A stretch of DNA of 14,611 nt, from assembly GCF_003334255.1 (NCBI RefSeq), contig NZ_QOWU01000079.1; one strand, written 5' to 3'. Origin of the DNA: Escherichia coli (GTDB taxonomy: Bacteria > Pseudomonadota > Gammaproteobacteria > Enterobacterales > Enterobacteriaceae). This document shows positions 8,680-14,611 of this stretch, piece after piece. How positions within the stretch are numbered: the stretch's first letter is position 1; every line of letters begins with the position of its first letter. A program made the position numbers and the translations under genes. The notes beneath the pieces were generated by a model. That model was given only the letters and a program-made list of their open reading frames with translations. It was not told the origin of the DNA and did no database searches.

Positions 8680-9002
8680 CGACATTAACTCAATGCCAGC
8701 AGCAGGTGCTGGATATGCTGATTTCTTATCAGAAAGAACGTGGCTTCCCGCCAACCAATCAGGAGGTGGCAACCATGCTGGGATACCGTTCGGTGAATGC
8801 AGCGGTGGAGCATCTTCGCGCACTGGAGAAAAAAGGTGTCATCACGATAAAGCGTGGCGTGGCCCGGGGTATCACTCTTCATACCGCGGTGAAGGACGAC
8901 GACAGCGAGGCGGTCGGGATTATCCGCGCCCTGCTTGCCGGTGAGGCAAACGCCAGGCTGCGTGCAGCCCACTGGTTACATGAGAGGGGCCTGAAAGTAT
9001 GA
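8676..9002 (+). CDS. LexA N-terminal DNA-binding-domain protein lacking the S24 peptidase domain
   Basis: 108 aa. LTQCQQQVLDMLISYQKERGFPPTNQEVATMLGYRSVNAAVEHLRALEKKGVITIKRGVARGITL aligns by eye with E. coli LexA residues 4-68 ([65 protein letters not shown]). It has no Ala-Gly cleavage site and no Ser/Lys dyad domain. ATGA overlaps occur at both ends. Confidence 0.8.
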   Translation: MTTLTQCQQQVLDMLISYQKERGFPPTNQEVATMLGYRSVNAAVEHLRALEKKGVITIKRGVARGITLHTAVKDDDSEAVGIIRALLAGEANARLRAAHWLHERGLKV

Positions 9003-9394
9003 AGCTAATACTGCCTTTTCCGCCCAGCGTGAACACGTACTGGCGACACCCCAACAAAGGGGCGTTTGCTGGTAAGAGCCTGATAAGCGCGGCGGGGCGA
9101 AAATTCCAGAGCGCGGCGTGTGCAGCAATAGTTGAGCAGTTACGTCGTCTGCCGAAACCAACGTCGGCACCTGCTTCAGTGGAGATCGTGTTGTTTCCTC
9201 CGGATAACCGGATCCGCGATCTGGACAACTATAACAAGGCGCTGTTTGACGCCCTGACCCACGCGGGTGTGTGGGAAGACGACAGCCAGGTGAAAAGAAT
9301 GCTGGTGGAGTGGGGACCGGTTATCCCGGAAGGGAAGGTCGAGATCACTATCAGTAAGTACGAAAAAGCGAGTTGCAAATTAGCAACTCGGTAA
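8999..9394 (+). CDS. rusA: RusA Holliday-junction resolvase
   Basis: LPFPPSVNTYWRH...RIRDLDNYNKALFDALTHAGVWEDDSQV matches E. coli RusA (LPWPPSNNRYYRH...[28 protein letters not shown]). Confidence 0.9.
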   Translation: MKLILPFPPSVNTYWRHPNKGAFAGKSLISAAGRKFQSAACAAIVEQLRRLPKPTSAPASVEIVLFPPDNRIRDLDNYNKALFDALTHAGVWEDDSQVKRMLVEWGPVIPEGKVEITISKYEKASCKLATR

Positions 9395-9459: not shown

Positions 9460-9556
9460 TATCCTTGATAACTATTAAAAATCGCAGTAAGTTCATCCTG
9501 CATCAACGAAAAGGGAGTGCAGTCCCGCTCGTGGATAAAAATTTGTGGAGAAACCA

Positions 9557-10372
9557 ATGAATCAGTTGCTTGTAATTGATGGCGTTTCTGTGCGCCAGTA
9601 CTTCGAATCTAACTACTGTCTTAACGACCTTCAGAAAGCTGCTCTTCTTGCCGCTGGTGAGAATCGCTCCTCCCGTTCGCTGGAAGTTCACGAGTTTATG
9701 CGTCGTCCTGAAACGAAGGCTCTTGTGGAATTATTGGAAGAAGAAACTACGGGAGATTCCCGTAGTATTCCTGTCATCACCATTCAGGGGCGCAATGGTG
9801 GGACGTATGTCTGTAAAGAGCTGGTCTATGCATATGCAATGTGGATCAGCCCGGCATTCAGCTTAAAAGTGATACGTACTTTTGATGCGCTTCATAATTC
9901 ATCACCAGAAGAAACCACATCCGACAAAATTAAATCCGGGGTCATTCTGCTTGAATCAGCAGCAAAGACTCTAAATCTGTCAAACTCCTCGAAACTTGGT
10001 GCATACCAGAAATTATCAAAGGTAGCTGGTCTTCCTGAACTTATGCCGATCTATGCCATTGATGCACCTGCTGATGCGCCAGATGGTTCAAGCCGCCCTA
10101 CGCTGTCGCTGAGTGCACTGCTGAAGCAGTATGGTATCCGCCTGACGGCTAATCAGGCATATCACCAGATGGCGAAGCTGGGGATCGTTGAACAACGCGA
10201 ACGATACAGCCGTACCGCGATTAACAACATCAAAAAATTCTGGTCGCTGACAGCGAAAGGCTGCATGTTCGGCAAGAACATCACCAGTCCTGCAAATCCG
10301 CGCGAGACGCAGCCGCATTTCTTCGAATCCCGATTCCCTGAGCTGTTAAAGCTGCTCGATACCGTTCATTGA
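9557..10372 (+). CDS. KilA-N domain protein (antirepressor-like)
   Basis: ATG 9557 (GGAG-N6) is preferred over GTG 9545. MNQLLVIDGVSVRQYFESNYCLNDLQKAA...EFMRRPETKALVELLE...VITIQGRNGGTYVCKELVYAYAMWISPAFSLKVIRTFD fits the KilA-N pattern I recall. Confidence 0.7.
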   Translation: MNQLLVIDGVSVRQYFESNYCLNDLQKAALLAAGENRSSRSLEVHEFMRRPETKALVELLEEETTGDSRSIPVITIQGRNGGTYVCKELVYAYAMWISPAFSLKVIRTFDALHNSSPEETTSDKIKSGVILLESAAKTLNLSNSSKLGAYQKLSKVAGLPELMPIYAIDAPADAPDGSSRPTLSLSALLKQYGIRLTANQAYHQMAKLGIVEQRERYSRTAINNIKKFWSLTAKGCMFGKNITSPANPRETQPHFFESRFPELLKLLDTVH

Positions 10373-10373
10373 G

Positions 10374-11369
10374 GTGACCGTGAGAGCACTACTGACCCCT
10401 GAAATCGCCCCGCGTATGGGGATCGTATTGTTCAGGCCAGGTTCAGAGCTGATGCCCCTGTTTATGCAGGGGCGTGTCCTGCTGGAGCCTGAGCCGGAAC
10501 GTTATTCATCTTTTGCCAGTGGTGCCGTTCCGGCATCATCACAACCGCTGGCGGATGATCCTGCCGTTCGGGCCGTGTTCCGCCATGAGGCGGTGATCCG
10601 TCGTGCTGGTGGCGTGGAATGCCTTGAGAGCTGGTTACTTCGTGAAAAGGGCTGTCAGTGGCCTCATTCCGACTGGCACAGCGAGAACATGACCACAATG
10701 CGGCACGCGCCAGGCGCAATCCGTCTGTGCTGGCACTGTGACAATCTTCTCCGTGACCAGTTCACGGAACGGCTGGAAGCAATGGCAACGGATAACTGTG
10801 CCCGCTGGGTGTTGTCTGTTGTGCGCCGTGATCTTGGTTTTGATGACAGTCACGTTGTGACAATGCCGGAACTGTGCTGGTGGCTGATTCGTAATGACCT
10901 GGCGGATGCTTTACCGGAAAGTGCAGCCCGTAAGGCCCTGAGATTACCGAAGCCTGTTTTGCCGTCTGTCACCCGGGAGAGTGACCTTGTACCTTCGGTT
11001 ACTGCCACCAGTATTATCCGGGATAAAGCGAAAAAGGTGCTGGCGCTGAAAGTGGATCCGGAGTCGCCGGAGTCTTTTATGTTACGCCCCAAACGTCGTC
11101 GCTGGGTTAATGAAAAGTACACTCGCTGGGTTAAGACGCAGCCGTGTGCATGTTGTGGAAAGCCAGCTGATGATCCGCATCATCTGATTGGTCACGGCCA
11201 GGGTGGTATGGGGACAAAAGCGCATGATCTCTTTGTGTTGCCTTTGTGCAGAAAACACCATGACGAACTGCATGTGGATACCGTGGCATTTGAAGAGAAG
11301 TATGGTTCCCAACTGGAGCTGATATTTCGTTTTATCGATCGCGCACTGGCGATTGGTGTGCTGTCCTGA
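10374..11369 (+). CDS. DUF968 protein (YdfU family) with a C-terminal Ref-like HNH motif
   Basis: The C-terminus reads CACCGKPADDPHHLIGHGQGGMGTKAHDLFVLPLCRKHHDELH, a Cys/His HNH-type motif I associate with DUF968 and P1 Ref. The start is uncertain (GTG 10374 or GTG 10380 after GAGG). The gene begins 1 nt after the KilA-N stop. Confidence 0.7.
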   Translation: MTVRALLTPEIAPRMGIVLFRPGSELMPLFMQGRVLLEPEPERYSSFASGAVPASSQPLADDPAVRAVFRHEAVIRRAGGVECLESWLLREKGCQWPHSDWHSENMTTMRHAPGAIRLCWHCDNLLRDQFTERLEAMATDNCARWVLSVVRRDLGFDDSHVVTMPELCWWLIRNDLADALPESAARKALRLPKPVLPSVTRESDLVPSVTATSIIRDKAKKVLALKVDPESPESFMLRPKRRRWVNEKYTRWVKTQPCACCGKPADDPHHLIGHGQGGMGTKAHDLFVLPLCRKHHDELHVDTVAFEEKYGSQLELIFRFIDRALAIGVLS

Positions 11370-11386
11370 TTTTGTGGAGAAAGTTG

Positions 11387-11779
11387 ATGCGTGATATTCA
11401 GATGGTTCTTGAACGCTGGGGGGCATGGGCGGCAAGTGGTAACACCGGGGTGGACTATTCTCCGATAGCTGCTGGATTTAAAGGCCTTTTACCATCCACC
11501 GCTAAACCTCGCCCGGCCTGCAGCGATGATGACGGCCTTATCATCGAAAACTGCCTTACGCGCCTGAAGAAGAAAAAACCGGACGAGTATTCGCTGCTGG
11601 TAGCTCATTATCTGCTGCGCATATCAAAAAGGCAGATTGCCAGAACAAGAAAGAAGAGCGAAAAGGCAATACGAATTGAGATGCAGATTGCTGAAGGATT
11701 TATTGACGGATGTCTGTCGATGCTGGGTGTAAGGCTGGAGATGGACGACTGGCTGCCCAAAAAAGTAAAAAATGATTAG
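11387..11779 (+). CDS. Q: late-gene antiterminator Q (QuuD-like)
   Basis: ATG 11387 (GGAGA-N6) is preferred over TTG 11372. MRDIQMVLERWGAWA...IAAGFKGLLPS...CSDDDGLII is close to E. coli DLP12 QuuD as I recall it. Confidence 0.85.
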   Translation: MRDIQMVLERWGAWAASGNTGVDYSPIAAGFKGLLPSTAKPRPACSDDDGLIIENCLTRLKKKKPDEYSLLVAHYLLRISKRQIARTRKKSEKAIRIEMQIAEGFIDGCLSMLGVRLEMDDWLPKKVKND

Positions 11780-11862: not shown

Positions 11863-11983
11863 TGACTGAAATCGCATCAGTACAGTAAACGTGCTGGTGG
11901 TGGTGAATACCGGTCTTTCAGCTTGCTGGCTTTTTCGACAAGAGTTATTGGTGTGTCACGTTAACCGGAAAAGGGAAAAAGAC

Positions 11984-12181
11984 ATGCTAAAACAGCAGGA
12001 TATGACAGAAACCGCCAGAGTGGTGTTTAATGAATTAAGTGCCACCGAACCGGCGACAGTCGGGGAGATTGCGCAGAATACTTACCTTTCACGCGAACGC
12101 TGCCAGTTAATACTGACCCAGCTGGTTATGGCGGGTCTGGCAGACTATCAGTTCGGTTGTTACAGACGCCTTCCGCAGTGA
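11984..12181 (+). CDS. small hypothetical protein (65 aa), possibly winged-helix; moron-like unit
   Basis: ATG 11984 (AAGGGAAAAAGACATG) is preferred over the track start 11891. The translation is MLKQQDMTETARVVFNELSATEPATVGEIAQNTYLSRERCQLILTQLVMAGLADYQF. The gene is flanked by terminators at 11840 and 12168. Confidence 0.5.
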   Translation: MLKQQDMTETARVVFNELSATEPATVGEIAQNTYLSRERCQLILTQLVMAGLADYQFGCYRRLPQ

Positions 12182-12192
12182 AGGCTTTTTTA
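12168..12192 (+). terminator. intrinsic terminator overlapping the small-ORF stop
   Basis: GCCTTC-CGCAGT-GAAGGC followed by TTTTTTAT. Confidence 0.7.
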
Positions 12193-12510
12193 TTTGTGGT
12201 AAATGGGCGGCTGGTGGGTGTGGTGGTTGTTGCTTTCCCGTTGCTGAAAAAGAAAGCATCAGGCGATTAGCAGGGTATCAGTTACCCGTTGAAATTTTTA
12301 AATACCTCACAATTCAGGCGGTTGACTGTTGTCTGGTTTGCGGGGAGTTTGTTAAAAGAAACTGGCATGGTGAATCCCCCTGTGCGGAGGGGCAATCAGC
12401 AACTGGTGTTTTGTCACCGACCCTTATCCTTTCTGTGCGGGTTCAGGTGCTGATACTGAACTCACCGGGAGGCACCCGGCACCATGCAATGGCACATAGC
12501 GCCACTCTCC

Positions 12511-12537
12511 AGCCCCTCTCCGGAGGGGCTTTCTTAT
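12511..12537 (+). terminator. intrinsic terminator (tR'-like candidate)
   Basis: AGCCCCTC-TCCG-GAGGGGCT followed by TTCTTAT. Confidence 0.65.
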
Positions 12538-12541
12538 GGAC

Positions 12542-12570
12542 AAAAAAAGCCCGCGCTGGGAGACGCGGGC
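12542..12570 (-). terminator. minus-strand intrinsic terminator, convergent with the previous one
   Basis: The minus strand reads GCCCGCG-TCTCCCAG-CGCGGGC followed by TTTTTTT. Confidence 0.7.
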
Positions 12571-12610
12571 GGCAAGGAATAAACAACAAAACGTGAAGTA
12601 ATATTTCAGC
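12542..12610 (-). ncRNA. candidate small RNA of about 70 nt (promoter 12646-12617, terminator 12570-12542)
   Basis: The minus strand carries TTGCGC (12646-12641), an 18-bp spacer and TATTAT (12622-12617). The predicted RNA is GCUGAAAUAUUACUUCACGUUUUGUUGUUUAUUCCUUGCC followed by a GC hairpin and U7. It contains no ORF. Confidence 0.35.
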
Positions 12611-12764
12611 TGGCGAATAATATCCGACAGTAATCACTCTGCGCAATAGCGCGGCCTTTTTCGTATTGCGGGCTGTAGTCTTCCTCCTGCCATTGTCCTG
12701 TAACTTCCGGACTTCAGCCCGTTCCCTCATCTGACTCACAACATTATCCCGACCGGGAGGATTC

Positions 12765-14611
12765 ATGACATTTAAACACTATGACGTGGTCAGGGCGGCG
12801 TCGCCGTCAGACCTTGCGGAGCGACTGACACAAAAACTGAAGGAGGGGTGGCAGCCATTTGGCAGCCCTGTGGCCATCACGCCTTATACCCTGATGCAGG
12901 CCATTGCGGCGGAAGGTGATGTCACCACACCGGTGGTGGTGCAACCGTCGGGTGATGGTGGCGCTGTTATCAGCACCACCAGCGAACCGGAATATTACTT
13001 TGTCATTGCGCTGGCCGGGCAGTCCAACTCGATGTCTTTTGGCGAGGGGCTGCCGCTGCCGGATACGTATGATCGTCCTGACCCGCGTATTAAGCAACTG
13101 GCGCGTCGCAGCACGGTGACACCGGGCGGTGCGGCCTGTGCATATAACGACATTATTCCTGCAGACCATTGTCTGCATGATGTGCAGGACGTGAGTAATC
13201 TGAATCACCCGAAAGCAGACCTCAATAAAGGGCAGTATGGCTGTGTGGGGCATGCCCTGCATGTGGCCAAAAAACTGCTGCCGTTTATGCCTGCCCGTGC
13301 GGGGATCCTTCTTGTCCCGTGTGGACGTGGCGATTCGGGATTTACTGCGGGAGCAGAGGGCGCGTTTAATGAGGCGTCGGGTGCGACAGCGGGCTCTTCC
13401 CTGTGGGGGGTGGATAAACCGTTGTATCGTGACCTGGTCAGCAGAACGCGTGCAGCCCTGAAGAAAAACCCGAAAAACGTGCTGTTGTCGGTGATCTGGA
13501 TGCAGGGGGAAAAAGATGTCAGTTCGGGGAGACATGCAGAGCACAATGCACTTTTTCTTGCCATGGTAAATAAATACCGTGCAGACCTGGCAGATATTGC
13601 AGACCAGTGTATTGGCGGGACAACGTCCGGCGTCCCGTGGATTTGCGGTGACACCACGTACGACTGGAAGGCGAAGTATGCAGTGCAGTATGAGGCGGTT
13701 TACGGAGGCTATAAAGGCAAGGCGGCGCAGAATATTCACTTTGTGCCGTTGATGACGGATGAGCATGGTGCGAATGTGCCGACAAACGAGCCGTCAGAAG
13801 ATCCGGACATTATCACGGCGGGATACTATGGTGCCGCGTCACGCAGTAATGGTAACTGGACGACAGCCGATCGTAAAACGCACTTCAGCTCCTGGGCGCG
13901 AAGAGGCATTGTTTCAGATCGGCTGGCAGGAGAGATACTGGTGCGAGCCGGGCGTTTGCTGCCGTTCCTGAGCGGGCAGTCTGCACCGCTGGCGACCACG
14001 CCAGCCTCCACGGGGGATGCACAGTCTGGCTCTGCGGGTCCGACGCAACAGCAGGGTGCAGGTACTTCTGCAGGCGGTCATACTGAAGCCGTAACAAGAA
14101 TGGTGGCCGGATATGATGCGAACAGTGGCAGTGGTGTATGGACAGAGCAGCAGTGGAATGCGTCCGGTGGTAAAGGCACTGTGACGGATGACAGTGGCAG
14201 GAAGGCGCTGCGACTGGAAAAACAGCCGGGTAAACTGACCTCCTGGAAGATGTTCCGTACTGTTGCGGTGGAGGAGGCAAAAAATCTTCTCAGTAAGGGA
14301 GGTGAAATTGCCGTGCGGTTTAAGATCCCGGAGGGTGTCGAACTGGTTAACGGTCAGTTTGTCTTTGGTCTGTACTGGCCGGTGTCGCAGTGGGCGTCAG
14401 GCGCGACAGCAAACAGCATGCTGGCGTCCTTCTTCCTTCAGACGGATGCATCAAATCTGAATCTGATGTACCACAAGGGGGAGTCGAATGCGCAACTGGG
14501 CACATTTGGGGCATTTGACCATAACTGGCATACAGTTGTTTTCCGCTTTGCGGGAAATAACAGCGAAAGAGTCGTTCCGGTGATTGATGGTACAGAGCAG
14601 ACGGCGTTTGA
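12765..14611 (+). CDS. nanS-p: NanS-p-type prophage sialate O-acetylesterase (DUF1737 N-terminal domain plus SASA/SGNH esterase), 5' 615 codons; 3' end beyond the window
   Basis: Absent from the ORF track because it is open-ended. I translated 12765 to 14611 codon by codon and found no stop. GGGAGG lies at 12755-12760. The N-terminus is MTFKHYDVVRAASPSDLAERLTQKLKEGWQPFGSPVAI, which looks like DUF1737. YYFVIALAGQSNSMSFGEG carries the GQSN esterase serine motif. Its position between Q and the lysis genes is the same as nanS-p in EHEC lambdoid prophages. Confidence 0.85.
   Translation, partial: MTFKHYDVVRAASPSDLAERLTQKLKEGWQPFGSPVAITPYTLMQAIAAEGDVTTPVVVQPSGDGGAVISTTSEPEYYFVIALAGQSNSMSFGEGLPLPDTYDRPDPRIKQLARRSTVTPGGAACAYNDIIPADHCLHDVQDVSNLNHPKADLNKGQYGCVGHALHVAKKLLPFMPARAGILLVPCGRGDSGFTAGAEGAFNEASGATAGSSLWGVDKPLYRDLVSRTRAALKKNPKNVLLSVIWMQGEKDVSSGRHAEHNALFLAMVNKYRADLADIADQCIGGTTSGVPWICGDTTYDWKAKYAVQYEAVYGGYKGKAAQNIHFVPLMTDEHGANVPTNEPSEDPDIITAGYYGAASRSNGNWTTADRKTHFSSWARRGIVSDRLAGEILVRAGRLLPFLSGQSAPLATTPASTGDAQSGSAGPTQQQGAGTSAGGHTEAVTRMVAGYDANSGSGVWTEQQWNASGGKGTVTDDSGRKALRLEKQPGKLTSWKMFRTVAVEEAKNLLSKGGEIAVRFKIPEGVELVNGQFVFGLYWPVSQWASGATANSMLASFFLQTDASNLNLMYHKGESNAQLGTFGAFDHNWHTVVFRFAGNNSERVVPVIDGTEQTAF

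Follow-up and report, generated by a model that had tools for sequence, protein, structure and literature searches.

On its minus strand the window, by which we mean the whole 14,611-nt stretch of Escherichia coli DNA analysed here, very probably carries the gene of EcOnc08, a lambdoid-prophage sRNA that is associated with Hfq and RNase E, runs antisense to the late operon and lies between an STnc100-type sRNA and nanS-p. The element is EcOnc08/EcOnc21 of prophage Sp4 and EcOnc42 of the Stx1 phage. It is a rediscovery and not a new RNA: an earlier note on this DNA, made from the letters alone, had called it an undescribed prophage sRNA, and it has carried these names since 2014. What we add is a gene model for a short form (promoter, predicted start at A12611, compensated terminator and a seed at 12601-12576), a promoter anchor held in common with AsxR and AgvB, and a picture of two transcripts in which the long RNA would be antisense to the nanS-p leader. 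EcOnc08 adjoins the Shiga-toxin insertion site, and among its carriers are roughly one in five complete E. coli genomes, Stx1 phages, a subset of Stx2a phages and inducible phages that lack stx.

Identity of the minus-strand element

By its Pfam gene content the window covers the late-regulatory region of a lambdoid prophage, and the element sits inside the 580-nt gap between a small ORF and nanS-p (Table 1), the position that stx occupies in Stx phages and the moron slot of the prophage, bounded by Q/PR' and nanS-p. The ATG of the nanS-p-type gene is at 12765, a small correction to the first reading of this region.

In the Sakai genome the element belongs to prophage Sp4, flanked on one side by the tRNA genes ileZ, argN and argO and on the other by ECs_1088. 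The alignment with this copy has a single mismatch, a loop base, across 12534-12680, and the Sakai coordinate is the window coordinate plus 1167394, valid for 12534-12723. Orphan Hfq-crosslinking peaks in Sp4 were listed by Tree et al. in 2014 (Table S2; PMC4104026), and EcOnc05, EcOnc08 and EcOnc21 are placed on the window in Table 1. The Hfq-CRAC peak EcOnc08 was present in five datasets and EcOnc21 in three (PMC4104026); the delta-hfq column has a blank entry for this RNA. The suggestion of an Hfq-binding minus-strand sRNA ending at the terminator was therefore correct, as the same sequence in Sakai is the published peak EcOnc08. The published Northern probe for EcOnc08/21/42, which is identical to the window plus strand and detects a minus-strand RNA, lies where these two minus-strand peaks meet.

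Because Tree et al. worked on an older Sakai sequence, we checked the coordinate frame with both published probe sequences. The EcOnc05 probe is the antisense of the variable part of Sakai STnc100, at the start of the EcOnc05 peak. A shift of +142 at Sp4, which would move EcOnc05 onto the plus strand of the element, was rejected, since the probes fit their own peaks only at zero shift. NC_002695.1 and NC_002695.2 agree at the Sp4 locus (offset 0) but differ by +142 at Sp5 and by +135 at Sp15, and these offsets affect the coordinates given in the EHEC sRNA papers of 2014-2020 relative to the current RefSeq record.

The sequence 12538-12665 is present in 1192 of 5426 complete E. coli genomes (about 22%), and the element is 99.2% identical in O157:H7 genomes and occurs in 57 sequenced phages. 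Overall, the published EcOnc08/21/42 loci and the window share 99-100% identity, the strand and the neighbours (an STnc100-type sRNA and nanS-p). The Stx1-phage copy in Sp15 (EcOnc42) is identical here save for one mismatch in the terminator stem, which is intact in the window. This C-to-A change within the equivalent of 12549-12570 weakens the hairpin from about -18 to -12 kcal/mol; this may be why Tree et al. had no terminator prediction at the site, and read-through could become possible. A 2021 review lists EcOnc42 (aliases EcOnc21 and EcOnc08) from Northern probing and Hfq-CRAC, with its target unknown, and papers that followed Tree et al. describe EcOnc42 as the sRNA that bookends stx1AB on the 3' side. 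A literature search by sequence found nothing. Esr41, which a 2026 preprint finds near PasD, was set aside as a candidate: it lies in SpLE1, and its Rfam model has no match here.

Table 1. Features of the window, with published peaks and probe placed on its coordinates
Feature	Position	Strand	Basis and remarks
RusA	8999-9394		Pfam
KilA-N	9545-10372		Pfam
DUF968	10374-11369		Pfam
Antiterminator Q	11372-11779		Pfam
Small TrmB-like ORF	11891-12181		Pfam
STnc100-family sRNA	12336-12541	+	Rfam RF02076, 143 bits, E = 3e-32; EcOnc05 in Sakai Sp4
Peak EcOnc05	within STnc100	+	Sakai 1179806-1179914; Northern ~222 nt (PMC4104026)
Plus-strand terminator	12511-12537	+	stem 12511-12530 and tail TTTCTTAT; terminator scan
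Minus-strand intrinsic terminator	12542-12570	-	stem 12570-12549 (8 pairs, 7 G-C, 6-nt loop), T7 at 12548-12542; terminator scan and folding
Short form (predicted, ~70 nt)	12542-12611	-	published EcOnc08; 5'-AGCUGAAAUAUUACUUCACGUUUUGUUGUUUAUUCCUUGCC-hairpin-U7
Long form (predicted)	12542-12735	-	includes the EcOnc21 Hfq peak 12622-12707; antisense to nanS-p leader
Peak EcOnc08	12544-12616, +/- 1 nt	-	Sakai 1179938-1180010; Northern ~271 nt (PMC4104026)
U/G-rich single-stranded region	12576-12601	-	UUACUUCACGUUUUGUUGUUUAUUCC; likely seed and Hfq site; CLASH chimeras; 80% between clades
EcOnc08/21/42 Northern probe	12616-12650	+	AATAATATCCGACAGTAATCACTCTGCGCAATAGC, exact match; ~271 nt reported (PMC4104026)
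Proximal sigma-70-type promoter (predicted)	12617-12646	-	-35 TTGCGC 12646-12641, 18-nt spacer, -10 TATTAT 12622-12617
Peak EcOnc21	12622-12707	-	Sakai 1180016-1180101; Northern ~271 nt (PMC4104026)
Terminator-like hairpin	12639-12661	+	CTGCGCAATAGCGCGG then CCTTTTT; scan; encloses minus-strand -35
Long-range stem in long form	12669-12721	-	CGGGCUG 12721-12715 with CAGCCCG 12675-12669
Distal promoter-like site	12743-12771	-	ATGTCA-17-GATAAT; overlaps nanS-p start codon and ribosome-binding site; sole promoter-like match of the scan
nanS-p-type sialate O-acetylesterase gene	12765-14611	+	DUF1737, SASA, DUF6645 (Pfam); annotation of identical loci; incomplete, past window end

Proposed promoters, terminator and transcripts

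The terminator scan recovered the two intrinsic terminators that had been described as facing each other, with 4-5 nt between their tails. Over 2 kb the scan gave six terminator-like sites, against 2.3 +/- 1.4 in shuffled sequences. Since an STnc100 match occupies 12336-12541, the plus-strand terminator ends a known prophage sRNA. The predicted minus-strand RNA folds into an open U/G-rich body followed by the terminator hairpin (-18.1 kcal/mol, z = -2.8). This agrees with the layout foreseen in the earlier note and typical of Hfq-dependent sRNAs, in which an intrinsic terminator with a long U-tail is preceded by a U-rich single-stranded stretch.

The hexamers of the proposed proximal promoter are where they had been placed, and they are conserved and homologous to those of AsxR and EcOnc03. 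However, the match to consensus is weak (three of six positions in the -35), the site is absent from the output of the promoter scan, and published reads cross it. Its support comes from conservation and homology and not from the motif match. We infer that the short form starts near A12611, the sixth nucleotide after the -10, as in AsxR and EcOnc03, and a short form of about 70 nt is likely. EcOnc08/21/42 appears in the literature as an RNA of about 271 nt, whereas a ~70-nt form transcribed from a separate promoter is proposed in the present work.

From 80 viral and 6 genomic loci with nanS-p relatives, 52 allowed the start codon to be anchored and the upstream minus strand to be read. The window element (type A) was present in 34 and an RNA of the AsxR/AgvB/EcOnc03 type (type B) in 18. 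The type A loci fall into two diverged clades. Between the clades the -35 and -10 hexamers are each fully identical (1.00), the T-tract is at 0.96, the body 12599-12571 at 0.80, the spacer at 0.71, the area around the predicted start at 0.57, the terminator stem-loop at 0.51 and the upstream flank at 0.32-0.48. In the terminator stem, GCCCGCGU/GCGCGGGC of one clade is replaced by AACCGCUC/GAGCGGUU in the other, with three pairs changed on both sides, and all variants fold as a hairpin followed by a U-run. These statements are based on folds of the individual sequences, the automatic pair count on the MAFFT alignment being off by one column through unequal loop lengths. Conservation is nearly complete in the hexamers and T-tract against 32-57% in the flanks, with a compensated stem. 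A compact gene that possesses a promoter and a terminator would be expected to show this pattern, which is our chief reason to regard the proximal promoter as genuine.

Two further observations concern these loci. The plus-strand hairpin at 12639-12661, about 100 nt upstream of nanS-p, is shared by clade 1 and AsxR-type loci; in the diverged clade its equivalent is gone but TTGCGC remains. At one locus (L062), in which nanS-p starts at 1447, the sRNA ends after CACGTTTTG, some 180 nt ahead of that start, and unrelated sequence replaces the terminator, which could be the result of an insertion or rearrangement.

Published reads bear directly on the transcripts. Waters et al. (PMC5286369) give read sequences in their RNase E-CLASH tables, and ten fragments labelled EcOnc8, EcOnc21 or EcOnc42 are exact matches to the minus strand within 12717-12562, with matches at 12717-12687 and 12623-12595. 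One chimera joins ...GCGCGGGCUU to an mRNA fragment and so marks a 3' end in the terminator U-tract, which provides the minus-strand transcript ending near 12542 that had been anticipated. Several fragments, among them ATATTATTCGCCAGCUGAAAUAUU (12623-12600) and AUUAUUCGCCAGCUGAAAUAUUACUUC (12621-12595), cross the proximal -10 and the predicted start, and therefore some transcripts originate upstream of it. For two independent fragments the 5' end corresponds to about 12734-12735, which is 8-9 nt downstream of the distal GATAAT. The distal site is itself conserved, a conservation confounded by the translation start of nanS-p. In addition, an intramolecular hybrid from Sakai, with 108 reads, joins GCGGGCUG to CAGCCCGC and defines the stem of the long form; the diverged clade retains both arms of this stem around a different loop. 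The earlier idea of a single RNA of about 70 nt is too simple in view of these reads and of the band of about 271 nt seen with a probe upstream of the proposed start. Table EV2 of the same study (PMC5286369) uses the label 'asxR1' for the Sp4 locus and 'asxR2' for EcOnc22, which could mislead database users. We discarded 'asxR1' as a name for the Sp4 locus, because it is apparently a find-and-replace artefact in which 'EcOnc2' became 'asxR' (from 'EcOnc21').

The predicted long form, from 12735 to the terminator, is about 193 nt and does not match the Northern estimate of 271 nt. Read-through from 12735 to the base of the next hairpin (CCGGGUGCCUCCCGG, end at 12465) would give 271 nt, and the band could conceivably be such a read-through product, eased by the weakened terminator of the Sp15 copy.

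Taken together, we propose two transcripts that end at a common terminator, 12570-12542. The short one would arise from near A12611 by way of TTGCGC-18-TATTAT, a putative homologue of the AsxR/EcOnc03 promoter in position and -35. The long one would arise from near 12735 by way of ATGTCA-17-GATAAT, overlapping the ribosome-binding site of nanS-p. Action would most likely be in trans, with Hfq offering the U/G-rich segment 12601-12576 to mRNAs at C/A-rich sites; RNase E may also be recruited. Pairing in cis would be possible as well once late transcription is on, given the full complementarity of the RNA to the part of the late transcript that precedes nanS-p.

A competing explanation that we hold possible, though less probable, is that there is only a long RNA of about 190-270 nt from the promoter at the nanS-p ribosome-binding site, working mainly as a cis antisense RNA or by transcriptional interference against the late transcript and the nanS-p leader. 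TTGCGC and TATTAT would then be conserved for another reason, perhaps as a recombination anchor or protein site. The Northern result, the reads that span the proximal -10 and start, the fragment ends just past GATAAT, the stem backed by 108 reads and the full complementarity to the nanS-p leader are all consistent with this explanation. However, the probe lies upstream of the short-form start and is blind to the short form, and the Hfq signal is split at 12616/12622, with EcOnc08 recorded in more datasets than EcOnc21. The perfect conservation of the hexamers amid divergent flanks, the finding that the homologous AsxR-type promoter drives sRNAs of 51-60 nt with mapped starts, and the existence of trans chimeras also argue for a short form alongside the long one.

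It is unlikely that the minus-strand hairpin is a mere insulating terminator that keeps stray antisense transcription from entering STnc100 and PR', the released RNA being a by-product bound by Hfq through its U-tail and regulating nothing. The back-to-back terminators would suit such a role, no target has been validated, the CLASH chimeras are single reads and the stem mismatch is tolerated in the Sp15 copy. Against it, the clades agree at 80% in the body that precedes the hairpin and the promoter hexamers are invariant, the element persists in inducible phages as well as in about 22% of complete E. coli genomes, and the RNAs of the neighbouring slot, AsxR and AgvB, are proven regulators. That the minus strand codes for a small protein, be it the 107-aa ORF or a shorter one, is extremely improbable: the ORF at 12766-12443 begins with ATG and PGAP sometimes calls pseudo-CDS fragments here, but it has no Pfam match, must traverse the two terminator hairpins and in homologues is broken by variable T-runs and by indels of 1, 4, 5 and 8 nt, which are not multiples of three and show that it is not coding.

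Convergent partner and surroundings

The convergent partner of the element belongs to the STnc100 family (RF02076), together with EcOnc05 and EcOnc27, and a 2026 preprint groups this family with PasD. The two sRNAs form one module, but they are encoded on opposite strands and are not related to each other. On the plus strand TTGACT and GAGTTT, separated by 17 nt, are found at 12322-12350, immediately ahead of the STnc100 match; the site is about 540 nt downstream of Q, beyond a separate terminator at 12168-12185, and could be the own promoter of the STnc100-type sRNA. In one viral contig (L043) the 1.3 kb that precede nanS-p contain three members of the STnc100 family (139-351, 821-1016 and 1081-1282).

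Elsewhere in the window, Rfam models match isrK at 5250-5326 (+, 59 bits) and, directly after it, the C4 antisense RNA at 5351-5438 (+, 81 bits). This pair at 5250-5438 suggests an immunity or antirepressor control region of the P1/P7 type in the prophage.

Likely seed region and relation to known sRNAs

The proposal that the U/G-rich stretch is a pairing region agrees with published CLASH chimeras, each of them a single read with a weak p-value. The segment 12576-12601 is carried by the chimeras with yodD (CACGUUUUG with CAAAACGUG), with the csgD coding sequence (UUGUUGUUUAUUCC with GGAAAAACAACAA), and with sppA and ECs2888. Within it, 11 nt (UUACUUCACGU, 12591-12601, minus strand) are identical to nt 40-50 of Spot 42. 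We rejected kinship with Spot 42, since the identity touches its base-pairing region III only at the edge and is expected by chance across many sRNAs.

GcvB, with its GU-rich R1 seed, resembles the element in having a U/G-rich single-stranded stretch, and the established GcvB site of the dppA leader contains a perfect match of 10 nt (UUUGUUGUUU with AAACAACAAA). It is otherwise without homology to the element. In a comparison of duplexes with those of composition-matched shuffles of the seed, pairing with the dppA leader, the oppA leader and AgvB was no better than for the shuffles (z = -1.07, -0.21 and -1.3), and the GcvB-like targeting that had been hinted at was not upheld. A plus-strand decoy resembling AgvB, an RNA of 12549-12661 that would use the C/A-rich stretch, was also rejected: its fold is unremarkable against shuffles (z = -0.9) and the published reads are all from the minus strand.

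A relation also exists with AsxR, AgvB and EcOnc03 (RF02703, RF02702), of which AsxR and AgvB are proven regulators. These RNAs occupy the same minus-strand slot, next to the STnc100 terminator and ahead of nanS-p, and share with the element an intrinsic terminator, binding to Hfq, and the sequence signals -35 TTGCGC, an 18-nt spacer and an A/T-rich -10. Their arrangement, a convergent sRNA pair 3' of PR' and between the moron or STnc100-type sRNA and nanS-p, is the one found in the window. In Sp5 (L008), AsxR at 2182-2130 abuts STnc100 at 1923-2128 (Rfam) with the same geometry. The AsxR promoter there is TTGCGC, 18 nt, TAAAAT, with the RNA beginning at the sixth base after the -10, and EcOnc03 is alike; both starts were mapped by RLM-RACE (Tree et al. 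2014, PMC4104026). Types A and B share the block that adjoins nanS-p as far as TTGCGC, are unrelated beyond it, and become similar again at the STnc100 terminator.

Body and terminator of the AsxR group are unrelated to those of the window element. With AsxR in Sp5 as positive control for the model search (88 bits), no Rfam family, RF02702 and RF02703 included, matched the minus strand at the element at E values up to 10, nor did any match the minus strand of the other type A loci, and the conserved 3' region of about 42 nt of AsxR/AgvB/EcOnc03 (GUAUCUCAUGC..UUGCCCGAACCCACUCGGGCUUUU) is absent from the element. The members of the group are also shorter, at 51-60 nt against a predicted 70 nt. 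Perhaps the stretch from TTGCGC to the STnc100 terminator is an exchangeable sRNA cassette, with AsxR/AgvB/EcOnc03 or EcOnc08 as alleles behind a shared promoter anchor. The EcOnc08 allele would then be a second family, an sRNA of about 70 nt whose U/G-rich seed represses C/A-rich host mRNAs, the mirror of AgvB sponging the GcvB seed; taken as a whole, we regard this extended scheme as rather doubtful. The contrast on which it draws is that the decoy of AgvB is C/A-rich, whereas the single-stranded region of the window element is U/G-rich and resembles an sRNA seed.
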